A stretch of DNA of 64,000 nucleotides from an uncultured Pelagibacteraceae bacterium (GCA_902604225.1 CACKXV010000002.1:8799-72798), one strand, 5' to 3'; positions 30,144 to 55,578 are shown, counted from the stretch's first letter. Notes: generated by a model not told the origin, from the sequence alone. Made by a program: numbers and translations.

Positions 30144-31208
30144 ATGGATTCAAGCTTAGAAGCAAAAAAAGAAAAAGTTATCGATCTCATTAATAAACTA
30201 GACGATAGCAACTTTGCATTATTGTTGCTAATTCACATCTCCCGGTATCAAAATTTATTTTTACATACAGATTCTGATTGGGAAAACAGCCCAACCAGTT
30301 GGTTGACAAAAGATAGACGACTACAAGATGAGTCTATAGGTGTTCTTTCGTTCATCATCCTTTATTCTCTTACCAATGCGCATGTGAATGCAGACCTTTT
30401 TCCTGAATATAGAAAGCAAATTGAGGCAATGCATCTTGAAGACTACTTGGATAATAATTTTTTTACAGGTCCATATAATAAGTTTATTGGAAAAAAAATA
30501 TCTCTTAAAGTTCTCGAGGCATTTTTTTCTATACCCCGTGAAAATATAAGACGATTCATAAATTCATTGATAGAGACTGGGTTTGTAAATAAAGATAAAA
30601 AGTATGGTTACCTTGTAAACATGGAGGCGTATGTTCAATATATATTTACTGATTCTCTAAGTAAAATTATGAAGTCACTTATGAGAACATTCGATGATAT
30701 TATCGTAAATCTTGAAGATAAGTATAAACTAAAATTAAATTTAAGACCTATTGGGACCATAAATCTAGGAAAAGTAAGGCCAGAAATCTGGAATCGGATA
30801 AGGTTACCTATGTATCACTTTTGGGTAAGAGTTTTAACACTAGACGGCAATGATTTAAACTTGACTCCTAATGATCGCGTTGTCTTGTCTGCATCAATCT
30901 ATTTTAGGAAACGAACTGGAATATTAAATTTTAAAACTATTTCTGATTTATACAAAAATGATTATCTTTTACCGACCAATATATCATCAATTTCTGAGGC
31001 ATCTAGAATGCCGAGAGAAACTGTGAGGAGGTGCAGTAATAAGTTAATAAAGATTGGACATTTAGAAAAAAAAGGACGTCAATTGTTTAGAATTAATTAC
31101 GCACATAAAGATGGAGAAGTAGCAACATTTATCAAGAATAAGGCAATAACGACGCGTGATATGATGAATTTTTACTTTAGTATTTATGAAGATCTAGCTC
31201 AGTCTTAA
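30144..31208 (+). CDS. uncharacterized protein with two winged-helix/HTH-like segments (putative regulator)
   Basis: Two MarR/Crp-like stretches: LEAFFSIPRENIRRFINSLIETGFVNKD and ISEASRMPRETVRRCSNKLIKIGHLEKKG. Divergent from the GS-like gene. Confidence 0.5.
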   Translation: MDSSLEAKKEKVIDLINKLDDSNFALLLLIHISRYQNLFLHTDSDWENSPTSWLTKDRRLQDESIGVLSFIILYSLTNAHVNADLFPEYRKQIEAMHLEDYLDNNFFTGPYNKFIGKKISLKVLEAFFSIPRENIRRFINSLIETGFVNKDKKYGYLVNMEAYVQYIFTDSLSKIMKSLMRTFDDIIVNLEDKYKLKLNLRPIGTINLGKVRPEIWNRIRLPMYHFWVRVLTLDGNDLNLTPNDRVVLSASIYFRKRTGILNFKTISDLYKNDYLLPTNISSISEASRMPRETVRRCSNKLIKIGHLEKKGRQLFRINYAHKDGEVATFIKNKAITTRDMMNFYFSIYEDLAQS

Positions 31209-33982
31209 ATTGAGCACATTAAAATAATTTCTTCATTACACACTAGTTCAGCTTCAACAATGGAGCTATTTTGGGAACTTAATTGTGTATCGAGTGCCTC
31301 CAGCATGGACTTTGCTTCACCCATTGGCACTGGACCAACAATTACTGAATAGTCATTTTTATCAAATTTATCGACATTGATATCATATTTAAGGAATCTG
31401 CTGTCAAATCCCATTACATCATAAATGTAATTCATAAAACTGAATGCAGAATTACCACGCGTATAAGATCCAATTTTTATATAAACAAATTCAGTTTTGC
31501 TGGTATCAACTGTTAATTCAGTCTCTTCAATATCACTTGCTTGGGCACTAAAAGCATTTGATGCTACTTCTGTTGGCTCTTCAATGAGTTGAGTTAAATC
31601 TTCTAACGCTTGAGATGCTTCTTCAGATAATTTATTTTCTAATTCAGCAGTATTGTTCAGTTCTGTAAGTAACTCTCTTGCAGTATTGGCTTCTTCTACA
31701 AGACTATTCTCATCAACAGTATTAATGATTTTCTTTTTTGGTAAAACGCTAATCAAATCTAATGTTTCTTCAGTATTATCAATTGTCGTTTCATCATTCG
31801 GTATGAGAGACGTATCTGCCTGGTTCTCAATTGTATCCATCTCTGTTATAGCTTCTTCTTCACTATCAATTGCAGATTCGTCGAGTATATTTTGAGCTTT
31901 TTTAAGTGTGTTATCTACTGAGTCTAATAAATCATTGAGACTATCGGCATCATTAATAACCATTTCATTTGAAACTGCATACTCATCTAAATCAATTTTT
32001 GGCTCTTCAATAATTTCTGCAATCTCGGGAATTTCATCAATTGATTCTGAGGCTTCTTCATTAGTTTCAATGTCTTTTTCAATTGTGAGGTTGTTCGCTT
32101 CTTTTTTATCCAAACCCAACTGGATAAGTTTTTGCCTTGCACCTTCACCTTCTTGGGCAAGAAATTGACCCTCATCCATAAATTGAAGTGTGAATCTATC
32201 TTCAACAGATACAAGTGCATTCGCAACTGAAACTTTTAATTTTATGCCAGATACGTCACTAGGAGGATTGCCCACAAATGATAAATCAGAAGTTAAAAAA
32301 GCGAGCCATCTTGGTAAAGCGGTGCCGTCTTCTTGTACAGCTTCATAACGCAATTTACCAGGCCCACTTATATTGAAAGTATTATCAGAAATTTGGAATT
32401 TATTACTGCTTTGCTGAGTGTTAATCGGATCATTGATTATTAAAAGCATCGGATCTTGTTCATTGATGGGAATTTCTACAGTCGCTTGATAATTCATGCC
32501 CCATTCAGCTAAATTCTTTTGAATATCATTACTTAGTTCTTCAATTGACATATTTTGATGATTTTCAGGTAAGATGTCCTTGCCAATTGAAGCATAAATT
32601 TGACCTATACTGTGCTGCATTTCTGAAAAAGCTAAATCTTTTCTTAATTCGGCAACTAAAAGACTCGCTTCTTCTCTGATAACTTCAAGTTCGCCAAATC
32701 TTGATACTTTTTGTGCATTTTGAACCTGTTTACTTATTCTTTTAGCTACATCTAAATATCTTTGAGCCGTATCATATTCCTCAATAGCAAGATCGTAGTT
32801 GATATTGGACAAATGAACTTGAGATAGTACTGTCATTGCAATTGCTAAATGTCTTTCAGCGATCAGTTCCTGGTTAGCTTTAGAGGCTTTTCTTGTCGCT
32901 CCGACAGAGAAAATATCAAATAAATTACCTCCAATTGATGCGCCATATTCATAGGTATCTTGATTAAACAAGTAATTATTATTTGTATAGCCGTAGGCGG
33001 CATTAAATTTTAAGCTTGGAATAAGAGCCAACATTGCAGCTCGCGTATCTTTACTTGAGATTCTTTTTTGGTAACGGCTTTCCATGAGCTCTGGTCTTGA
33101 AAGGAGAGCGATCTCTTCCATGGTTTGAATATCCATTTTAAGGTTCGTTAAGTATGAATTATTATCAGTCAGCGTAAAATCTTGATTAGGCAGTAGACCC
33201 ATCAGAGTTGCCAGCTCATTTTTAGAGTTTATAAGTGCTCGCTGCTGCGTTTGAAGTGTTCTCTGAACATCAAGCAGTTCCTTTTGATAAAGTAAGGAGT
33301 CCATAGGAGCTGAAATTAAAAGCTCTTCAATATATTGAGAGTCAGAGAGTGCGTCTTCAACTCTTTGAAGAAGTGGATTAAGTTTCATAAGAAGATTTTC
33401 AGATGCTTGAGCCTTCCAATAAGACCTAATAATATCTCGAGTAATATTTTGAATAGCTTTTCTCTCTAGTTCCTTGGCAATTAGATATCTGTCAGCTTGC
33501 TGTCCTGCTCTAATGTATGAGAGACCAAAGTCTAATGCATTCCAGGTGAATTCAATACCTCTTGTTTCTTGGCTTTTATCTCTCGAAATTGTATAACTCT
33601 CTGTTCCATCAAGTGAGGGAGCAGTACCACCATCAGTCGTAACAGTCTTACTCAAAGAAGGCTGTAACTTTGTGAACTCAGAATAACCCGCACTCAATGC
33701 AATATCAGGAAGCATGTCAAATTTTTGAAGATCTCTTTGTCTATTTGCCAATGCAGACTCCATTACACTTATTCTAAGATCTCGATTGTTTCTAATTGCG
33801 ATTGCAATTGCGGTATGCAAGTCAATATTTTGCAATGATGTATCAACGGTTAGTTCAGTAATATCTTCAGCAATTGAAAAACTTAAAGTTTCTGTATCAA
33901 TATTTTTTGGAGATCGCGCACAAGCAGCGAGTGCGATAAATAGGCAAAATATAATTATTTTTGTACTAATTCTTTTCATCAA
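31205..33982 (-). CDS. TolC/OprM-type outer-membrane efflux lipoprotein fused to a cadherin-like module, acidic linker and SPOR-like C-terminal domain
   Basis: Lipobox FIALAAC. About 450 aa of OEP-type helical repeats. ALPRWLAFLTSDLSFVGNPP..FTLQF (about nt 32180-32360). E/D/T/N-rich linker. C-terminus FVYIKIGSY..YSVIVGPVPMGEAKSMLEAL is SPOR-like. Confidence 0.8.
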   Translation of the reverse strand: MMKRISTKIIIFCLFIALAACARSPKNIDTETLSFSIAEDITELTVDTSLQNIDLHTAIAIAIRNNRDLRISVMESALANRQRDLQKFDMLPDIALSAGYSEFTKLQPSLSKTVTTDGGTAPSLDGTESYTISRDKSQETRGIEFTWNALDFGLSYIRAGQQADRYLIAKELERKAIQNITRDIIRSYWKAQASENLLMKLNPLLQRVEDALSDSQYIEELLISAPMDSLLYQKELLDVQRTLQTQQRALINSKNELATLMGLLPNQDFTLTDNNSYLTNLKMDIQTMEEIALLSRPELMESRYQKRISSKDTRAAMLALIPSLKFNAAYGYTNNNYLFNQDTYEYGASIGGNLFDIFSVGATRKASKANQELIAERHLAIAMTVLSQVHLSNINYDLAIEEYDTAQRYLDVAKRISKQVQNAQKVSRFGELEVIREEASLLVAELRKDLAFSEMQHSIGQIYASIGKDILPENHQNMSIEELSNDIQKNLAEWGMNYQATVEIPINEQDPMLLIINDPINTQQSSNKFQISDNTFNISGPGKLRYEAVQEDGTALPRWLAFLTSDLSFVGNPPSDVSGIKLKVSVANALVSVEDRFTLQFMDEGQFLAQEGEGARQKLIQLGLDKKEANNLTIEKDIETNEEASESIDEIPEIAEIIEEPKIDLDEYAVSNEMVINDADSLNDLLDSVDNTLKKAQNILDESAIDSEEEAITEMDTIENQADTSLIPNDETTIDNTEETLDLISVLPKKKIINTVDENSLVEEANTARELLTELNNTAELENKLSEEASQALEDLTQLIEEPTEVASNAFSAQASDIEETELTVDTSKTEFVYIKIGSYTRGNSAFSFMNYIYDVMGFDSRFLKYDINVDKFDKNDYSVIVGPVPMGEAKSMLEALDTQLSSQNSSIVEAELVCNEEIILMCSI

Positions 33983-34165: not shown

Positions 34166-37100
34166 ATGAGCAATAAACTTATTCAGGCTTTGGAACCCCG
34201 TCTTATGCTGGATGGTGCTGCAGTAGCAACTGCAATTGATGCGGTTGATGATTTAGCTCAGTTTCAAAAATCCGAAAGCGATAAGTCATCTAAAGCAGAT
34301 CACTTCAAAGCTGATAAAGATACGAAACTACCTTTTGTAAATTTAGATACATCAGCTCAAAGTGCAAAATCAAGACAGATTATTTTTATCGATAGTACAG
34401 TTGAAGATATTGAAATTCTAATCAACAGTTTTGACAACAATACTGAAGTGCATGTTATACAAAGTGATCAAGATGGATTTGTTACTATGCAAAATATTTT
34501 ATCATCTCAAGAAAATATCGATGCGGTTCACATCATTGGTCACGGAAGTTTAGGACAGATTGCATTTGGTACAGCCGTATTAAACACTGATACATTAAAT
34601 GCTTATGAAAACATTCTCCAAGAGATTGGAACTAGTCTCTCAGAAAATGGAGACATTTTATTTTATGGTTGTAACGTTGCTGCAGATCAAAGTGGTGAGA
34701 TCTTAATTAATCAGATTGCAGACATCACAGATGCTGATGTAGCCGCATCAGATGATGTGACGGGTAAAGGAGGGGATTGGGACCTTGAGAAACATACAGG
34801 CATTATTGAAACCGAAAATGTTTCAGTGGTAGGCTATCAATATGCATTAGATAACGGTGTAACAGCAACTCAAAATGCTGTTGAAATACATAATTCAAAT
34901 ATGAATTTTATGGCAGGCGGCGGAGACTATCAAAATAACACTGGAGGTCAAACAGATCCAGGGGGAACCCGATACATCGTCACGCTTGAAAGAGGCAATG
35001 TCACAACAGGAAGTAATTTAGTTTTTGATTACGCAGTAGCCTCATCAAGTCATGATCCAGACAATGACGGCGCTGTTAATGTTTATATGGTTTTTCTAAA
35101 TGACTATGTAAATAGAAGATCCTTAAACGATAGAGGTATTATAACGTTTGATAATGAAATTCTTGGTATTTTTACCACTCCAGAAAATACAATAGCAAAA
35201 TCTGGTTACGATATGAGTACTGGTACCTATCCTTTAACAACTGGTTCAAAAAAAGTCCAGATGAGGGATTTGGAGTATCAGAATGATGGAGTTCCTCCAG
35301 GTGTAATGGGATCAGGAGATGCTTTTACCGTAACAGGGTCAAATAAAATTTTAACCATGGCTACAGATAATGGACTGAAAGGTGACTTCGTGAGGGTAGT
35401 CACGAGAGTAGCTGCTACAAATCAAGATCCTGTTGGTAATAACGACACTGGAGCTGCTAATGAAGATGCGAGTGTCTCTGTAAGTGCAGGTAGCGGTGTT
35501 TTGTCAAATGATACAGATCCTGACGGAGACTCACCACTTACTGTAAGTGCAATATCAGGAGGTTCTCTTGGATCAGCTTTAGATGGTAATTATGGACAAC
35601 TAACTTTAAGTGCAGATGGTAGTTACACTTATAACGCAAATAAAGATCTAGCAGACCCTCTAGATCCAGGTGATACAGCAACGGACACATTTACTTATAC
35701 GGTATCTGATGGAAATGGTGGAACAGATACAGCAACGCTTACGATAACTATTACAGGAGTAAACGACCCAATAACTGCAATAAATGATACTGATGCAGTA
35801 AATGAAGATGCAACAATTAATCGAAGCACTTCAGACTCGCAGGAACTTGATCATGATGATACGGACCCAGATGGTGATGACGCCTCTGGAAGCTTTACGA
35901 TTACGGCAATTCGTACTGGCAGGGAAGGTGCAAGTGGAACCAGTGGTACGGTTGGACAGGCATTGACGGGAACCTATGGTGTACTGACAGTTGATTCAGA
36001 TGGTAGTTATAGTTATGCGGCGACAACAAGTGGTGCAGATGGTTTAGCGCATGGAGCGACAGCAATTGATTACTTCACCTACACAGTTAGAGATCACAGT
36101 GGTGGCGATACAGATACTGCTGAACTTGCAATTACAGTCACAGGCGTTGGACCAGTAGCAGCGAATGATACGGGCGCAGTTGACGAAAATGCTACGCTAT
36201 CTAAAAACGCAGGTGCAGGCGTAATTGCAAACGATACAAGTGGTGATACAGAAAGCCTTGCCGTTACAGCCATAAGAACTGAAGCAGAAGACTCAGGAAG
36301 TGGAACAAGTGGAACAGTGGGACAAGCCTTAACCGGTACTTATGGTGTGTTAACATTGGATGCAGATGGAAGTTACACATATGTTGCCAATACCACAGCT
36401 GCTGAAGCATTGGATGCTGGAGACAGTGTAACAGATGTCTTTACTTATACTGTGGCAGATGATGATGACGCAAGTACAGACACAGGAACATTAACAATCA
36501 CCATTACAGGAGTTGATGATGATCCGGTTGGCGTTAACGATACTGGTGCTGTTAACGAGGATGCAACACTTGATGTTGACCAGGTAGGTAGCGGTGTTTT
36601 AGCTAACGATACCGATGCTGATACTGATGCAAGTTTAACAGTTTCAGCAATTTCTGGTGGAACTGTAGGACAAGCAAAAAATGGCACATATGGAGCACTT
36701 ACCTTAGCTTCTAATGGTACTTATACTTACGTGGCCAATCAAAGTGGGGCGGACGGCCTTGCTGCTGGCGCCACAGCAACAGATACCTTTACATATACAG
36801 TTAGTGATGGAGCAGGAACTACTGATACAGCTACTTTAACAATAACTGTTACGGGCATTGGGCCACAGGCTGTAAATGATACGGGAGCAGTTGATGAAGA
36901 TGATACTCTAAATGTCAATGAAGCATCGGGCGTTATAAGTAATGATGATGATAACAGTAGTTTCGATAGTGAGAGTTTGGCAGTTACAGGAATACGAACA
37001 GGGACTGAGTCTGGAAGTGGATCTGCAGGCTCAATTAATTCTGCTCTTACAGGAACCTATGGTCAGTTAACCATTCAAGCAAACGGTAGTTATGCTTATG

Positions 37101-40100
37101 TTGCTAACCAAGCTGCAGCTGACGCTCTTGATCCAGGTGATACTGTTACGGATACATTTACTTACACTGTTAAAGATGATGATGATAAAAATGCTGACAC
37201 CGGTGAACTCGTTATCACCATAACAGGTGTCAATGATGATATTACAGCAGTCAATGATACAGATGCTTTAATTTCTGGTGCAGAAATTATACGAAGTACC
37301 TCAGATACTCAAGAGTTAGACCATGATGATACAGACCCAGATGCGGATGATGTTTCTGGTTCATTTGCAATTACAGCAATCCGAACTGGGGCAAGTGAAG
37401 GTGCTGGGACTGCCAAAACTATTGGCCAAGCTTTCACAACGACATACGGCACAATGACAGTACGAGCAGACGGATCATATACTTATACTGCTGATCAAAG
37501 TGGCTCAACAAGTTTAGGAAACGGAGTCACAGCAACAGACAGTTTCAATTATACCGTTCAAGACCATAATAGTGGAGATACGGACATAGCAACTCTCGTG
37601 ATTACCATCACTGGATCAAATAATCAAAACCCCGTTGCATCAAATGATACAGGTGTCATTATTGAAGATGGGACACTTACTGTTGCCGATGGCGGTTCAG
37701 CAGTAACAGGCTCTGATAGCAATAACAACAATGAGAGTGGTGATACAACAGGAGATGTATTAGTCGGGGATACAGATGCTGATGGTGATACCTTAACAGT
37801 TACTAATATTTCAGGAGGAACAGTTGGAGATCCAGTGACGGGTTCTTTTGGTACACTGACAATTCATTCAACTGGACGTTACAGTTACGAGGCTGATCAA
37901 GCTGCAGCTGACGCTCTTGATCCAGGTGATACCGGAACTGATACTTTTACATATACGGTAGGGGATGGAAATGGTGGATCAGATACAGCAACCCTGATCT
38001 TTACGATAATTGGCGCCGATGATGATCCTGTTGGCGTAAATGACACAGGTTATATCAATGAAGATGCAACTTTGAGTGTTTCAGATGGTGGCTCTGCTGT
38101 AACAGGTTCTGATAGCAATAATAACAATGAGAGTGGTGATACGACAGGGGATGTTTTAGCAAATGATACAGATGCAGACGGGGATGCAAGTCTTGTAGTT
38201 TCCGCGATTTCCGGTGGAACTCTGGGACAAGGTGTTGCGGGCACTTATGGTATCTTGACTTTAAATGCAAATGGTAGCTATTCATATGTAGCTAATCAAA
38301 ATGGTGCGGATGGATTGGCGGCGAATGCAACTGCTACTGATGTGTTCACTTATACTGTAAGTGACGGTGCTGGTACAACCGATACAGCAACCCTTACAAT
38401 TACTGTAAAAGGTGTTGGTCCTGTTGCAAGTAATGATACAGGCAGTGTAAATGAAGATGCAACGTTATCTGTGAGTGCTGGTTCTGGAGTTACATCAAAT
38501 GATACAAGTGGTGATACTGAAAGCTTAGCGGTCACAGCGATTAGAACGGGTACTGAGTCAGGCAGTGGATCTTCTGGTACTGTCGGTCAATCATTAACAG
38601 GTACTTACGGTACACTGACTATGAATGCCGATGGAAGCTATACATATGTTGCTGATCAAGCTGCAGCCGATGCACTCGATCCAAGCGAGACTGCAACAGA
38701 CACATTTACCTACACAGTAGCGGACGATGACGATAAAAATACAGATACTGGCGAGATCGTAATCACTGTTACTGGTACAAATGACACAATTGTTGCGGTT
38801 AATGATACAGATGCTGTGAATGAAGATGCAACAATCACTCGATCAACCAGTGATACGCAGGAACTGGATCATGATGATACAGATGTTGACGGCGACGATG
38901 TTTCAGGATCATTCACGATTACAGCTATTAGAACAGGCACAGAAAGCGGGTCTGGTAACGCTGGAACTATTGGTCAAGCATTAACAGGAACTTACGGTAC
39001 ACTTACGGTTAATGCCGATGGATCATACACATATGTTGCTGATCAAAATGCAGCAGACAGCATTGTGACCGGCAATGCAGCAAATGAAACATTTACTTAT
39101 ACGGTTAGAGATCATAACAGCGGATCCACAGATACTGCAGAGCTTACTTTTATTATAACAGGTATAAATGATGAAAGTCCTGTGGCTGTTGATGATACAG
39201 ACACTGTACCAAAAGGTGAGACAATTACGAGAGCAGCTAATACGACGTCTGCACTTAACGCAGACGATACAGATGCAGATGGTGAGTCGTTAACAATTTC
39301 TGCAATTAGAGTTGGACAAACTGAAGGTGGCGGAGATTCAGGTACACTTGGCAATGCACTCGTTGGAACGTATGGTACGCTTACACTTAGTGCTGATGGA
39401 AGTTACAGCTATGTTGCTGATCAGGCAGCTGCAGATGCATTAAAACGTGGCGAAAGTGCAATAGAGTACTTCAACTACACAGTAACTGATGGAACAAATG
39501 AGGACATTGGTGTACTTGCAATTACCGTTACCGGTAAGAGTGATCCTCCCGTACCGGATGACGACTCACTTGCAATCGATGCAGGTGCGACAGGTGTAAA
39601 AGATGCCTCAAAAGGTGTATTAAACAACGATACAGATCCTGATGGTGACAGCTTAACTGTAAATACGATACGAACAGGTGAGGAAACTGGCACTGGGACA
39701 ACTGGATCAATTGGATCACCTCTTACAGGAGCGTATGGAGATTTAACAATTAACGCTGACGGCAGCTATGAATACAAGGCTAATAATGCGAAGGCATTAA
39801 ATCCAGGTGAAACAGAAACGGAATACTTTACGTATACCGCAACGGATGGAGAAACACCTGTAGAAGCTCAAATTGCCGTAACTGTGACAGGTAAAAATGA
39901 TCCACCTGAAGTTTTATACCCTGTCCGAGATCCAAATACAATTGCAGGTGCAACAATCATTATCAGGCACAAACAGATTTTTGACGATCCAGATACAGGT
40001 ATTTATGATATCGCAGAATACAAGATTATTGATCCTGAAGATGGCACAGAAGTAAGCCTTCCCGATGGACTAAGATTAAAACAAAATAAGATTCATGGAT

Positions 40101-41281
40101 CCATTAGTACACCTGGAACATATTCAATTACGATAAGAGCCATTGATGGTGAAGGGCTTTATGCAGATCATACATTTACAATTACAGTAAACCCTGCGCC
40201 AGGAGAAATGGTTGAAAAGGAAACTACCGATGAAGAAATACCATCCACTTATGATACAGTTGTCATTAAACCAAAGAAAGATTATTTAGCTGCATTACAA
40301 GAAATTAATGAGGGTTCATTAGCTAACACTGATGATGGCTTTAATTTAGGTACTATATCAATTGCCGATACTGCATCTCTTTCAAAACCGCTTAAATTTA
40401 ATGGAGGTTTGAGATTGATGGATGCCGTCGCCAATGAATCATCTGGCAATGAAGAGTCCGATTTATCAGTTGGCGTTAAATTAAATGATGATAACCAAAA
40501 GAATGTTGAAATGTACTCAGGAAAACTATCTGATGGGGAAGCATTACCTGAGTGGATACAAGTCAATCCCGAAACGGGAGAAACAACTGCCGATATGCCC
40601 GAGGGCGTTCAAGAAGTTGAAGTACAGCTTGTTGCTTTAGACAAAGATGGGAACACAAGAGACATTAATATTGTTCTGGATAAAGCAAAAATTAAAAATG
40701 ATCAAAATTTTATTCGAGGTACAGTTGGTCAGACTCAGGTAGTTGTTGACAACGATGCAAATGTAAATCTTATTCGTAAAAGTGAAGGAAAGACTGACCA
40801 AGTCGCATCAAATAATTTAAATGCTGAAACTGATTTCCTAGGAACCATGAAACTAAGTGATATTCAAGTCGATGCAGGGAAGTATACGTTTGATGTTATC
40901 GATGACAATCAATCGAATGTAAAATTGTACAAAGCTGAGATGAAAGATGGAAGCTCTTTACCTGAATGGATTACCATTGATCCAGAAACAGGAGCCATTT
41001 CAGCAGACCCATCAATAGGGCGAACAGGTTCTGCGGCACCAGCATTTTTAACAAATAGTCTTCAATTCCTAGAGTTAAAAATTATTGCTGAAGATGAAGA
41101 TGGTAAAGAGAGAATAATTGAAGTTGATATTAATCTTGATGAAATCGCTACGCCATCTGAAACTGAAGAGCAAGTTGATGAAACTGATGAAGTTTCGTTT
41201 ATTCCCCTTGATGAACAACTTAAGGTACAGTCTCAGAAAATAGATAATTATGGCGAAAAAATTATTAGTCTTGTAAGCTAA
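34166..41281 (+). CDS. giant (2,371 aa) DUF4347 / cadherin-like (VCBS-type) repeat surface protein, putative adhesin
   Basis: N-terminus ..ALEPRLMLDGAA plus a DUF4347-like region (IIFIDS..DAVHIIGHGS..ILFYGCNVAA..DVAASDD). 12 repeats with NDTDxDGD and GTYGxLTxxADGSYTY..TDTFTYTV. C-terminal He_PIG/CADG-like modules. Confidence 0.9.
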   Translation: MSNKLIQALEPRLMLDGAAVATAIDAVDDLAQFQKSESDKSSKADHFKADKDTKLPFVNLDTSAQSAKSRQIIFIDSTVEDIEILINSFDNNTEVHVIQSDQDGFVTMQNILSSQENIDAVHIIGHGSLGQIAFGTAVLNTDTLNAYENILQEIGTSLSENGDILFYGCNVAADQSGEILINQIADITDADVAASDDVTGKGGDWDLEKHTGIIETENVSVVGYQYALDNGVTATQNAVEIHNSNMNFMAGGGDYQNNTGGQTDPGGTRYIVTLERGNVTTGSNLVFDYAVASSSHDPDNDGAVNVYMVFLNDYVNRRSLNDRGIITFDNEILGIFTTPENTIAKSGYDMSTGTYPLTTGSKKVQMRDLEYQNDGVPPGVMGSGDAFTVTGSNKILTMATDNGLKGDFVRVVTRVAATNQDPVGNNDTGAANEDASVSVSAGSGVLSNDTDPDGDSPLTVSAISGGSLGSALDGNYGQLTLSADGSYTYNANKDLADPLDPGDTATDTFTYTVSDGNGGTDTATLTITITGVNDPITAINDTDAVNEDATINRSTSDSQELDHDDTDPDGDDASGSFTITAIRTGREGASGTSGTVGQALTGTYGVLTVDSDGSYSYAATTSGADGLAHGATAIDYFTYTVRDHSGGDTDTAELAITVTGVGPVAANDTGAVDENATLSKNAGAGVIANDTSGDTESLAVTAIRTEAEDSGSGTSGTVGQALTGTYGVLTLDADGSYTYVANTTAAEALDAGDSVTDVFTYTVADDDDASTDTGTLTITITGVDDDPVGVNDTGAVNEDATLDVDQVGSGVLANDTDADTDASLTVSAISGGTVGQAKNGTYGALTLASNGTYTYVANQSGADGLAAGATATDTFTYTVSDGAGTTDTATLTITVTGIGPQAVNDTGAVDEDDTLNVNEASGVISNDDDNSSFDSESLAVTGIRTGTESGSGSAGSINSALTGTYGQLTIQANGSYAYVANQAAADALDPGDTVTDTFTYTVKDDDDKNADTGELVITITGVNDDITAVNDTDALISGAEIIRSTSDTQELDHDDTDPDADDVSGSFAITAIRTGASEGAGTAKTIGQAFTTTYGTMTVRADGSYTYTADQSGSTSLGNGVTATDSFNYTVQDHNSGDTDIATLVITITGSNNQNPVASNDTGVIIEDGTLTVADGGSAVTGSDSNNNNESGDTTGDVLVGDTDADGDTLTVTNISGGTVGDPVTGSFGTLTIHSTGRYSYEADQAAADALDPGDTGTDTFTYTVGDGNGGSDTATLIFTIIGADDDPVGVNDTGYINEDATLSVSDGGSAVTGSDSNNNNESGDTTGDVLANDTDADGDASLVVSAISGGTLGQGVAGTYGILTLNANGSYSYVANQNGADGLAANATATDVFTYTVSDGAGTTDTATLTITVKGVGPVASNDTGSVNEDATLSVSAGSGVTSNDTSGDTESLAVTAIRTGTESGSGSSGTVGQSLTGTYGTLTMNADGSYTYVADQAAADALDPSETATDTFTYTVADDDDKNTDTGEIVITVTGTNDTIVAVNDTDAVNEDATITRSTSDTQELDHDDTDVDGDDVSGSFTITAIRTGTESGSGNAGTIGQALTGTYGTLTVNADGSYTYVADQNAADSIVTGNAANETFTYTVRDHNSGSTDTAELTFIITGINDESPVAVDDTDTVPKGETITRAANTTSALNADDTDADGESLTISAIRVGQTEGGGDSGTLGNALVGTYGTLTLSADGSYSYVADQAAADALKRGESAIEYFNYTVTDGTNEDIGVLAITVTGKSDPPVPDDDSLAIDAGATGVKDASKGVLNNDTDPDGDSLTVNTIRTGEETGTGTTGSIGSPLTGAYGDLTINADGSYEYKANNAKALNPGETETEYFTYTATDGETPVEAQIAVTVTGKNDPPEVLYPVRDPNTIAGATIIIRHKQIFDDPDTGIYDIAEYKIIDPEDGTEVSLPDGLRLKQNKIHGSISTPGTYSITIRAIDGEGLYADHTFTITVNPAPGEMVEKETTDEEIPSTYDTVVIKPKKDYLAALQEINEGSLANTDDGFNLGTISIADTASLSKPLKFNGGLRLMDAVANESSGNEESDLSVGVKLNDDNQKNVEMYSGKLSDGEALPEWIQVNPETGETTADMPEGVQEVEVQLVALDKDGNTRDINIVLDKAKIKNDQNFIRGTVGQTQVVVDNDANVNLIRKSEGKTDQVASNNLNAETDFLGTMKLSDIQVDAGKYTFDVIDDNQSNVKLYKAEMKDGSSLPEWITIDPETGAISADPSIGRTGSAAPAFLTNSLQFLELKIIAEDEDGKERIIEVDINLDEIATPSETEEQVDETDEVSFIPLDEQLKVQSQKIDNYGEKIISLVS
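35420..39908 (+). repeat. array of 12 tandem coding repeats (about 113-131 aa each) inside the giant gene
   Basis: Unit boundaries read from the translation (each ends ..T(L/E)xITxTGxN/GDP). At least three sequence subtypes occur in irregular order. Some DNA stretches are identical or near-identical between units (see the repeat-array finding). Confidence 0.9.
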
Positions 41282-53893: not shown

Positions 53894-54655
53894 TTAATTT
53901 TTTACACCATATCCTTTTGAAATCACAATAGCTACGCCAACAATACAAGCCACTAAAAAGCCTACAAGCGATACAACACTTATAAAGATATTAATATCTG
54001 AAGCGCCATAAAATGACCATCGCATCCCATTTATAAGGTATACCACAGGATTAAAGTATGAAACTTTCTGCCAGAACTCGGGTAACATCTCGATTGTATA
54101 TAAACTGCCCCCTAAAAAAACTAATGGAGTAATAATTATGAGAGGAACAACTTGCAATTGCTCAAAGTTATTGCTGAGCAATCCGATTAAAAATCCAAAT
54201 AAACTAAATGTAAGACAAGTTAAAATTAGGAGAAAAAGCATCAACAAGGGATATTGAATTTTTAGTTCAACAAAAAAACTTGCAGTAAGTAAAATTATTA
54301 TACCAACAATTAAAGACTTTGTTGCACTGGCTCCAACAAATCCAATTATGATTTCCAAAGATGATACCGGTGCAGCCAACACCTCATAAATAGAACCTGT
54401 GAATTTTGGAAAAAATATTCCAAATGCTGAGTTTGAAATACTTTGCGTCAAAAGAGTAAGCATAAGTAACCCAGGTACTATAAATGATCCATAACTCACA
54501 CCATCAAGCTCTGGTATCATGCTTCCTATTACGGATCCGAATACAATAAAATATAAAGAAGTTGAAATTACTGGTGAAAGTATGCTTTGACCTATTGTTC
54601 TTCGCATTCTATCCATCTCATGGAAATATATTGCTCTTATAGCGTAAAAGTTCAT
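53894..54655 (-). CDS. ABC-2 type exporter permease
   Basis: 253 aa with 6 TM, in the ABC-2 (YadH-like) layout. 1-nt start/stop overlap with the upstream ATPase gene. Confidence 0.85.
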   Translation of the reverse strand: MNFYAIRAIYFHEMDRMRRTIGQSILSPVISTSLYFIVFGSVIGSMIPELDGVSYGSFIVPGLLMLTLLTQSISNSAFGIFFPKFTGSIYEVLAAPVSSLEIIIGFVGASATKSLIVGIIILLTASFFVELKIQYPLLMLFLLILTCLTFSLFGFLIGLLSNNFEQLQVVPLIIITPLVFLGGSLYTIEMLPEFWQKVSYFNPVVYLINGMRWSFYGASDINIFISVVSLVGFLVACIVGVAIVISKGYGVKN

Positions 54656-55578
54656 TAATTTTCCCTTACTAACTCGACAAAAATATTTTCTAAAGAACTT
54701 TGTTCAGTTTTTAAATCTTTCAACTTCAATCCAGTTTCTTTCATATCTTGTAACAATGATGTAATTCCCGTTTGTTTACTTGACGAGTCATAATTGTAGC
54801 TGATTGATAATCCATTGTTCAAGACTGTTAGATTGTAACTTTCTAATTTAGAGGGAAGTGCTTGAATAGCCTCCTGTAAGTCAATAACAAGTGTTTTCTG
54901 ACCCATACTCTTTACTAGGTCAGATGTGTTATCAACTACTAGAAGTTCTCCTTTATTAATAACAGCAACTCGGTCAGCGATTGCCTCTGCTTCTTCAATG
55001 TAATGGGTTGTAAGAATAATAGTGACACCACTATTTCTTAGATCCTTAATTACTTGCCACATTTCTTGCCTTAATTCAACGTCTACGCCAGCACTGGGCT
55101 CATCAAGGAATAATACGGAAGGTTCATGTGAAAGAGCTTTTGCTATTAATACCCTTCTTTTCATACCACCTGATAATTCATTAATTCTAGAGTTTCTTTT
55201 ATCCCATAAGCTTAAATCTTTTAAAATTTTTTCAATTAAAGATGGATTGGGAGCCTTTCCATATAACCCGCGTGTATAAGAAACATTATTAAATACATAC
55301 TCAAATTGTTCTAATGATAATTCTTGTGGAACTAAACCAATTAGCGACCTAGTACGTCTATAGTCTTTTATAATATCAAAATTATCGACTGTTACTGAGC
55401 CAGATGTTGGAATAACAATTCCACATATAATGCTAATCATCGTTGTTTTTCCAGCACCATTTGGACCCAACAAAGCAATAATTTCATTTTTCTTTATGTC
55501 CAGGGTGATATTTTTTAGTGCCTGAAAATCATTATCATAAATTTTTGAAAGTTTTTTAATTGAGACAACATTTTGCAT
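54655..55578 (-). CDS. ABC-2 type exporter ATP-binding protein
   Basis: Walker A GPNGAGKTT, signature LSGGMKRRVLIAKAL, Walker B VLFLDEPSAGVD. Confidence 0.92.
   Translation of the reverse strand: MQNVVSIKKLSKIYDNDFQALKNITLDIKKNEIIALLGPNGAGKTTMISIICGIVIPTSGSVTVDNFDIIKDYRRTRSLIGLVPQELSLEQFEYVFNNVSYTRGLYGKAPNPSLIEKILKDLSLWDKRNSRINELSGGMKRRVLIAKALSHEPSVLFLDEPSAGVDVELRQEMWQVIKDLRNSGVTIILTTHYIEEAEAIADRVAVINKGELLVVDNTSDLVKSMGQKTLVIDLQEAIQALPSKLESYNLTVLNNGLSISYNYDSSSKQTGITSLLQDMKETGLKLKDLKTEQSSLENIFVELVREN

Follow-up and report, generated by a model that had tools for sequence, protein, structure and literature searches.

A TolC-family channel of uncultured SAR11 bacteria with a long C-terminal arm and a putative SPOR-derived end domain

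We analysed a 64,000-nt stretch of DNA from an uncultured Pelagibacteraceae bacterium (GCA_902604225.1 CACKXV010000002.1:8799-72798), hereafter called the window. The element under study is a gene for an outer-membrane lipoprotein of the TolC/OEP family, in which the channel region is followed by an Ig-like domain, an acidic linker and a small end domain. Divergent to it lies the gene of a giant surface protein, followed by two HlyD-type adaptors and an M50 metalloprotease-adaptor fusion (Table 1). A sister clade of this channel family ended in a canonical SPOR domain, a module that binds peptidoglycan; the end domain of the window protein differed from it and is probably its diverged counterpart.

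Table 1. Features of the channel gene and of the neighbouring envelope genes in the window
Feature	Position (nt)	Strand	Evidence
Whole gene, extended TolC/OEP-family outer-membrane lipoprotein	31205..33982	-	ORF list, homologs, single-cell genome alignment
Lipoprotein signal peptide ending in lipobox LAAC (Cys21)	33920..33982	-	Read from sequence; family conservation
OEP/TolC-like channel-forming region, aa ~22-495; recombinant tract nearest P0024	32498..33919	-	Pfam OEP; Marinomonas alignment
He_PIG-type Ig-like domain, aa 516-600, includes ALPRWLAFLTSDLSFVGNPP	32183..32437	-	Pfam PF05345
Acidic tether, few Pro/Gly, aa 604-828, five conserved islands	31499..32173	-	Composition, length conservation
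Terminal beta-alpha-beta-beta-alpha-beta domain, aa 832-914, positional counterpart of sister-clade SPOR	31241..31489	-	AlphaFold (AF2) model, hhalign, MAFFT
C-terminal tail with invariant Cys-x7-Cys (CNEEIILMCSI)	31208..31240	-	Invariant alignment columns C101, C109
Giant surface protein, 2371 aa, putative cargo, divergent to channel	34166..41281	+	Pfam, NCBIfam, synteny
Cargo N-terminal motif (MSNKLIQALEPRLMLDGAAVATAIDAVDD)	34166..34255	+	Conserved from SAR11 to Marinomonas, Rheinheimera
Adaptor 1, HlyD/RND_mfp-type periplasmic, signal peptide, 239 aa	41294..42013	+	Pfam HlyD_3; NCBIfam TIGR01730, 101 bits, above cut-off
Adaptor 2, cytoplasmic N-terminal domain of ~170 aa, transmembrane segment, HlyD-type periplasmic part, 447 aa	42010..43353	+	Pfam, NCBIfam
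M50/HExxH intramembrane metalloprotease fused to HlyD-type adaptor, 701 aa	43354..45459	+	Pfam Peptidase_M50, HlyD_3

Gene structure and integrity

The open reading frame (ORF) of the channel was uninterrupted and counted 925 aa from a TTG start, with the stop codon at 31205-31207. The codon after the TTG, an ATG at 33977-33979, is probably the true start, because the closest database protein (P0001) has 924 aa, the length that this start gives. More than 100 full-length clusters of 910-978 aa and 60-97% identity, with the same continuous layout, came up in the first homolog search. These came from single-cell genomes, metagenome-assembled genomes and metagenomes (NCBI, ENA, JGI), and all source names given were Pelagibacterales. 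The window protein and these relatives are called the window clade below, apart from the most distant match, which is treated separately.

The gene was a mosaic. Residues ~21-480 were closest to the P0024 lineage, reaching up to 100% identity in 40-aa windows; residues ~500-925 and all flanking genes were closest to the P0005/L008-L014 lineage. The junction, at aa ~480-500 (nt ~32480-32540, - strand), fell on the border between the OEP region and the extension, outside the linker. Since independent assemblies carried the same junction (L007, P0001 with 53 members, and P0002), these sequences indicate a natural recombination event and not an assembly error.

The long ORF might instead be an artefact in which two genes were fused by a frameshift or a chimeric assembly inside the low-complexity linker. 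An acidic region of low complexity could in principle mislead assemblers, and the gene does combine two lineages; however, the mosaic junction lies outside the linker and recurs among independent assemblies, the same continuous architecture was found in more than 100 independent clusters from all three kinds of source, and no tandem repeats were detected in the DNA of the gene. Moreover, the alignment to the independent single-cell genome AG-894-A11 ran over 2775 nt at 93.4% nucleotide identity with no gaps. The probability of an artefact is vanishingly small, and this explanation was rejected as far as sequence data can decide it. The gap-free alignment, the absence of tandem repeats and the steady linker length given below exclude a frameshift or join within 31.5-32.2 kb, the region that the sequence-only reading of the window had singled out for checking. 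That reading had proposed one continuous, extended TolC-family lipoprotein ORF, which was borne out, and it had placed all four of its segments correctly to within a few tens of bases.

Channel region, Ig-like domain and linker

The N-terminal part matched Pfam OEP (PF02321) in two stretches (E 8e-34; 117.4 bits against a cut-off of 22). The lipobox FIALAAC, at aa 15-21, was retained as L[SVA]AC in most family members, so that the earlier description of an OEP-type part behind an LAAC lipobox was correct; lipidation at the lipobox cysteine is predicted from this conserved motif. The NCBIfam models gave 39.4 bits for NodT (TIGR01845; cut-off 210) and 30.7 bits for the TolC of type I secretion (TIGR01844; cut-off 225). 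The channel is a divergent outer membrane factor (OMF) belonging to neither of these two curated subfamilies.

The segment after the channel region had been read as a dystroglycan-type cadherin-like module, and it exceeded the Pfam cut-off of 24 bits for He_PIG (PF05345), scoring 27.2 bits within the full-length protein and 30.4 bits when taken by itself. Many homologs carried a precomputed He_PIG match, and identity of the domain within the window clade was 67-95%. The giant protein had two C-terminal modules of the same family, as the sequence-only reading had noticed in proposing an interaction module shared by channel and cargo. In pairwise comparison the channel domain and these modules resembled each other only in the signature of the family, Y.A..DG..LP.W (single comparisons, E 4e-4 and 0.008). 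Because He_PIG is a common Ig-like domain and only its signature is shared, no specific channel-cargo interaction follows, and a specific kinship between the two sets of modules was rejected.

The linker, previously described as about 220 acidic residues at ~31480-32170, measured 225 aa, with 62 D+E and 13 K+R (net charge -49); Pro (5 residues) and Gly (4 residues) were scarce. Its length was 213-282 aa in the window-clade members measured, and its identity dropped to 31-40% in distant members. Five islands were conserved in it: FLA.E...AR..L, L..LLDS[VI][DE], [IL][LT]P.KK, E..L..EA..AL..L and [FY].AQA. The linker is probably largely helical, and the islands may be docking motifs.

Among members ~70% identical overall, identity was 74-91% in the OEP part, 67-78% in the Ig-like domain, 55-80% in the end domain and 31-40% in the linker; in relatives whose OEP part was 80% identical, the end domain reached 93-97%. 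Since identity fell only in the linker while linker length held, the pattern is, as judged from these alignments, that of three folded modules under selection and one spacer constrained in length and not in sequence.

A sister clade ending in a canonical SPOR domain

The most distant match of the first search, P0120 (850 aa), had the same succession of OEP part, Ig-like domain and linker, and ended in a Pfam-valid SPOR domain. A further search, with P0120 as query, uncovered another Pelagibacterales clade. It comprised more than 60 clusters (799-815 aa), and a single cluster among them had 371 member sequences. Many of these clusters bore a precomputed SPOR match, and a genome copy of this clade (L039) scored for both OEP and SPOR. 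The SPOR scores obtained in the sister clade were 27.5 bits (P0120) and 22.7 bits against a Pfam cut-off of 21, and the domain of P0120 aligned to the crystallised SPOR domain of RlpA. A word-indexed homolog search with the P0120 SPOR domain gave no matches. The automatic IMG name of some of these proteins is 'outer membrane protein TolC/cell division septation protein DedD'.

As a positive control for the structural search of the window domain, the SPOR domain of the sister clade was modelled and put through an identical Foldseek search. The model had a predicted local distance difference test (pLDDT) value of 88.9 and the order beta-alpha-beta-beta-alpha-beta, and its top four Foldseek matches comprised the RlpA SPOR domain (E 1e-5, TM-score 0.81, root-mean-square deviation 1.6), CwlC and DedD. 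In hhalign comparisons with FtsN, DamX, DedD and RlpA of E. coli K-12, the sister-clade profile reached a probability of 84% (E 7e-6).

In the sister clade the linker was shorter (152 aa in P0120, the sole member measured), and E, K, A and L were abundant in it. In P0120, P0125 and P0126 it contained EEQARLEAE/EEELRLAEEE repeats resembling a single-alpha-helix spacer, whereas the linker of the window clade was purely acidic. To judge by composition, the two clades employ different kinds of spacer for one architecture.

A channel tethered to the cell wall, as the sequence-only reading had proposed for the window protein, is well supported for the sister clade, where binding is predicted from the Pfam-valid SPOR domain and its match to RlpA. 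For the window protein the proposal stands by position and descent only.

The end domain of the window protein

The AlphaFold (AF2) model of the window end domain, built on a 13-sequence family alignment, showed the element order beta-alpha-beta-beta-alpha-beta (pLDDT 70.7). SPOR domains have this RNP/ferredoxin-like layout in common (PMC6895207). The terminal ~90 residues had been said to resemble a SPOR domain; the element order and the position, which corresponds to that of the sister-clade SPOR, agreed with this, and the direct matching tests did not.

These tests weigh against a wall-binding SPOR domain at the end of the window protein. Pfam SPOR (PF05036) had no match at E<=10 in the window C-terminus and 12 relatives, although OEP and He_PIG had passed their cut-offs in the profile searches that the sequence-only reading had suggested. 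When the C-terminus by itself and 13 family members were scanned with NCBIfam and Pfam at E<=10, neither SPOR nor any other meaningful match appeared. A search of PDB sequences with the family profile returned only chance matches to Csa3 (E ~0.6), and BLASTP could not align the SPOR of the sister clade with the window C-terminus. Confidence in the model is only moderate and its alignment is shallow; its Foldseek matches in PDB were ferredoxin folds only, either generic or de novo (the best at E 0.017), with no SPOR in the top 50. This negative is informative because the control recovered solved SPOR domains. The window end domain is not a canonical SPOR.

The binding surface differed as well. 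Binding to denuded glycan requires conserved residues of the beta-sheet, namely Q251, S254, W283 and R285 of FtsN, and Q270 and R309 of RlpA; in FtsN these residues are also necessary for localisation to the septum (PMC6895207). In the hhalign and MAFFT alignments the window clade had K, D and S at the positions of FtsN Q251, W283 and R285 and kept S254, which is a further point against wall binding, whereas the sister clade retained Q, an aromatic residue and R there. The window end domain was acidic, with an isoelectric point (pI) of ~4.3 (4.2-5.6 in the clade) versus 9.4-10.3 for E. coli SPOR domains; such a charge would be unfavourable for binding an anionic glycan. Three residues were inserted between its strands beta2 and beta3, and it bore a tail of 15 residues that contained an invariant Cys-x7-Cys pair; this tail was missing in the sister clade and in canonical SPOR domains and had low pLDDT in the model. 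The hydrophobic tail follows the last strand, and its Cys pair may form a periplasmic disulfide.

Among 1.84 billion representatives scanned exhaustively with HMMER, the only relatives of the end domain lay within its own family. Two candidates were discarded: P0123, a PAN-repeat protein, was spurious (six identical repeats at 5.7 bits each), and P0124 was a chimeric fragment of the channel's own family.

Descent of the end domain from SPOR

The profile of the window clade aligned with the combined SPOR profile at a score of 20.5 (E 0.0035, probability 9%). The alignment spanned 59 columns in register from beta1 to alpha2, pairing YIKIGSY with vQ.Ga. and VIVGPVP with IlvGP. Reversed-profile controls scored 8-10, and none of 300 column-shuffled profiles reached 20.5 (mean ~10, SD 2, maximum 19.4). 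Two points weaken this result: the hhalign probabilities for the window domain were only 0.6-9%, which is sub-significant, and column shuffling destroys secondary-structure periodicity, so that any beta-alpha-beta-beta-alpha-beta domain might beat this null.

Unguided MAFFT placed the end domains of both clades in the same register as hhalign, with an Ala in alpha1, a Lys in beta2 and GP after beta3 invariant. It also paired 'FYSAAQ' of P0120 with the 'F.SAQA' island of the window clade just upstream of the end domain. As both the register and the upstream island align, divergence in place is indicated rather than a cassette swap. SPOR domains are poorly conserved in sequence (PMC6895207). From these alignments we consider that the window end domain probably descends from a SPOR domain and diverged in place.

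A swap would mean that an unrelated ferredoxin-like domain replaced the SPOR, or the reverse, and that the likeness is one of convergent topology. The beta-alpha-beta-beta-alpha-beta fold is extremely common, the top Foldseek matches were generic or de novo ferredoxins, the profile-profile probabilities were low, and the gene is recombinogenic, being a mosaic at the border between OEP part and extension. However, an in-register alignment through beta1-alpha1-beta2-beta3-alpha2 that surpasses 300 shuffles and the reversed controls speaks against such a swap. The same register in unguided MAFFT, the invariant GP after beta3 and the upstream island common to P0120 and the window clade weigh against one that took in the junction. 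We regard a swap as distinctly unlikely.

Gene neighbourhood

The giant protein comprised an N-terminal LEPR motif, a DUF4347 domain, 12 cadherin-like/Big_9 repeats and C-terminal He_PIG modules; no RTX repeats (HemolysinCabind) were found in it by Pfam at E<=0.01. Its gene showed a G+C of 0.41-0.445 (35001-40000) compared with ~0.31-0.37 over most of the remaining window sequence, and the raised G+C probably stems from the D/T/G/A-rich cadherin-like repeats and not from a foreign origin. The DUF4347 domain (34379-34819, +) had a weak Peptidase_C80 match (E 0.038), and its HIIGHG ... YGCNVA resembles a His/Cys dyad; by these motifs the domain may be a clan-CD-like protease or a stopper.

The giant protein opens with ~25 residues (K.LI.ALEPR..LDGAAVATA.D) that were near-invariant among SAR11, Marinomonas and Rheinheimera (loci L007-L050), whose OMFs share ~39% identity; they gave a weak NCBIfam LEPR-XLL match. 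Because the cluster contains an M50 protease, the cargo has no RTX and no ABC (ATP-binding cassette) exporter lies nearby, this conservation suggests a recognition, targeting or processing signal.

The N-terminal domain of adaptor 2 had no Pfam match. In the M50 fusion the HELGH and NISPFMRFDG motifs were intact; NCBIfam gave daptide_HExxH (E 2e-38, below cut-off) and a weak N-terminal PqqD-related match (E 6e-4). No ABC, RND (resistance-nodulation-division) or MFS (major facilitator superfamily) pump was present in the cluster. The sole ABC system in the window was an ABC-2 permease and ATPase pair (53894-55578, -), 8 kb from the cluster and separated from it by a prolyl oligopeptidase, sucCD, a gamma-glutamyltranspeptidase and bipA; it is probably unrelated. 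A neighbouring ABC exporter as the missing energiser was thus not found within the window or the flanks checked. Likewise, at the Marinomonas locus L046, with 10-kb flanks, there was no ABC gene upstream or between the OMF and the locus end, and these flanks held no RND or MFS pump.

A 354-aa protein (30144-31208, +) converged on the channel gene with a 4-nt overlap and had only weak winged-helix/HTH (helix-turn-helix) matches. Its synteny held in almost every SAR11 locus of the window clade (53-92% identity), and it might be a regulator.

A genome scan yielded 38 Pelagibacteraceae/Pelagibacterales loci. By tblastn, the N-terminus of the giant protein, both adaptors and the M50 fusion adjoined the channel wherever a SAR11 locus had sufficient flanking sequence, loci of the sister clade included, and the synteny of channel, cargo, adaptors and M50 fusion was strict in ~30 SAR11 loci. 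The earlier proposal that the giant protein is the putative cargo is strongly supported by this synteny.

The nearest relatives outside SAR11 were OMFs of Marinomonas and Rheinheimera, which aligned only to aa 1-494 (37-40% identity). The Marinomonas alcarazii OMF had 526 aa and OEP domains only, and was followed by a homolog of adaptor 1, a 2592-aa DUF4347 protein and a homolog of adaptor 2. Since Marinomonas has the system with a plain OMF, the system predates SAR11 and the arm is a SAR11 addition. A survey of TolC-SPOR fusions had been proposed for marine alphaproteobacteria in general; the extension was limited to Pelagibacterales, and its nearest relatives outside the order were without it.

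Proposed mechanism

We propose that the channel is the OMF of a conserved five-gene envelope system, found in a subset of uncultured SAR11, that serves the giant cadherin-repeat protein, and that it carries an arm whose end domain derives from SPOR and may still anchor it to the wall; we give this reading a probability of roughly 0.6. A TolC protomer has both its termini in the periplasm, with the C-terminus packed at the equatorial domain. By this topology the arm should be periplasmic and present three times per trimer. Each protomer would thus consist of an ordinary channel part (aa ~22-495) which, in SAR11 only, extends from its periplasmic C-terminus into a three-part arm: the Ig-like domain, then the acidic tether of ~225 aa and then the small end domain.

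SPOR domains bind amidase-processed ('denuded') glycan strands (PMC6895207). In the sister clade the trimeric channel would accordingly be held by three arms to amidase-processed peptidoglycan. In the window clade the end domain would be a SPOR descendant that gained the Cys-x7-Cys tail and lost the Gln and Arg binding residues. That it still binds peptidoglycan is a tentative proposal, which we place a little below an even chance; with modest confidence, the arm may still anchor or position the channel on the sacculus. Such an anchor could pass load from the giant protein at the surface to the sacculus, or place the system at division sites.

On a somewhat unlikely but serious alternative, the end domain, SPOR-derived or not, no longer binds the wall and serves instead, at the end of its long tether, as a ferredoxin-like domain that binds a protein or has a regulatory role. 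Docking on the adaptors, on the periplasmic DUF4347 part of the cargo or on the M50 fusion might then gate the channel or retain the cargo. The loss of SPOR binding residues, the acidic surface, the failure to match solved SPOR structures where the control succeeded, and the new invariant Cys-x7-Cys tail all speak for it. So do the short conserved motifs in the linker and the 93-97% conservation of the end domain against 80% in the OEP part, which, with the confinement of the domain to its family, would fit co-evolution with a partner. However, a canonical SPOR occupies the equivalent position in the sister clade, within the same gene neighbourhood, so that a conserved role is the simplest assumption, and SPOR binding rests largely on main-chain contacts, with variable sequences (PMC6895207). 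Both a wall anchor and a protein partner would be consistent with the linker islands and with the strong conservation of the end domain. We retain the wall-anchored arm as the preferred reading.

A broader and more speculative picture, unlikely as a whole, is that of a hitherto undescribed, ABC-independent envelope system made up of an OMF, three HlyD-type adaptors and an M50 fusion with possible PqqD-like leader binding. Shared by SAR11 and Marinomonas/Rheinheimera, it would recognise and process the LEPR motif of giant DUF4347 adhesins and display these at the cell surface, to which the SAR11 channel would add SPOR-type arms that fasten it to the wall.

Significance and comparison with known systems

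To our knowledge, descriptions of TolC-family channels usually present them as free-standing exit ducts that lack wall-binding domains. In the literature searched, no OEP/TolC protein fused to SPOR or to another wall-binding module was found, nor anything relevant on LEPR-XLL, DUF4347, M50-HlyD systems, SAR11 giant adhesins or the SAR11 cluster. The architecture is present in databases and has passed unremarked under names such as 'TolC family protein' or 'TolC/DedD'. It would be the first TolC-type channel lineage, as far as we know, built to grip peptidoglycan. The two SAR11 clades amount to a natural experiment: the end domain is a canonical SPOR in one and a strongly conserved, unrecognisable putative derivative in the other. 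Their comparison could show how far a SPOR drifts and whether its ligand is kept.

SAR11 is the most abundant bacterial group in the ocean and is usually viewed as a minimalist, non-adhesive plankter. If the ABC-independent system described above were real and its channel fastened to the wall by such arms, a free-living planktonic cell could carry a load-bearing giant adhesin. The cluster, with its giant LEPR/DUF4347 protein, three adaptors and M50 fusion and no ABC transporter, hints at an unstudied route of giant-protein export or anchoring, and the arm would gain in interest if this M50-adaptor system proved to be a distinct export route.

Compared with TolC, OprM and NodT, the window channel has the same two OEP repeats, a lipobox of the NodT/OprM class and a location beside HlyD-type adaptors. 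It differs in being about twice the usual length, owing to the Ig-like domain, tether and end domain at its C-terminus, in scoring far below the NodT and type I TolC cut-offs, and in having partner genes without an ABC, RND or MFS pump.

Type I secretion systems combine an ABC exporter, a membrane fusion protein and an OMF, and classic substrates carry a C-terminal signal. The SAR11 cluster, by contrast, has no dedicated ABC exporter, and its cargo has an N-terminal LEPR motif, no RTX repeats by Pfam and an M50-adaptor fusion encoded in the same cluster. In the Lap system the adhesin LapA is retained in the TolC-like LapE. Both systems have a giant repetitive adhesin beside a dedicated OMF and adaptors, and in both a folded N-terminal domain (here DUF4347) could act as a periplasmic stopper; however, neither an ABC transporter nor LapG/LapD-like genes were seen in the SAR11 cluster, and the LEPR motif, the cargo without RTX repeats by Pfam and the M50 fusion set it apart as well.

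Like the window protein, RlpA is a lipoprotein of the outer membrane in which a long linker precedes a beta-alpha-beta-beta-alpha-beta domain at the C-terminus. Compared with the SPOR proteins RlpA, FtsN, DamX and DedD, the window end domain has no Pfam SPOR match and no SPOR among its top 50 Foldseek matches, lacks the Gln and Arg binding residues, is acidic and bears an extra Cys-x7-Cys tail, and its carrier is a channel instead of a lytic transglycosylase or divisome protein.

Wall-binding modules occur on other envelope machines: AMIN in the PilQ secretin, and OmpA/MotB-like domains in TagL/TssL of type VI secretion and in SiiA of the type I system that exports a giant adhesin from Salmonella SPI-4. 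Their domains belong to other families and sit on a secretin or an inner-membrane accessory and not on a TolC-family channel, yet the logic of a trans-envelope machine with a wall-binding anchor is the same. The components (OMF, He_PIG and SPOR) and the theme of a wall-binding module on an envelope machine are known, while their combination is new and lineage-wide.

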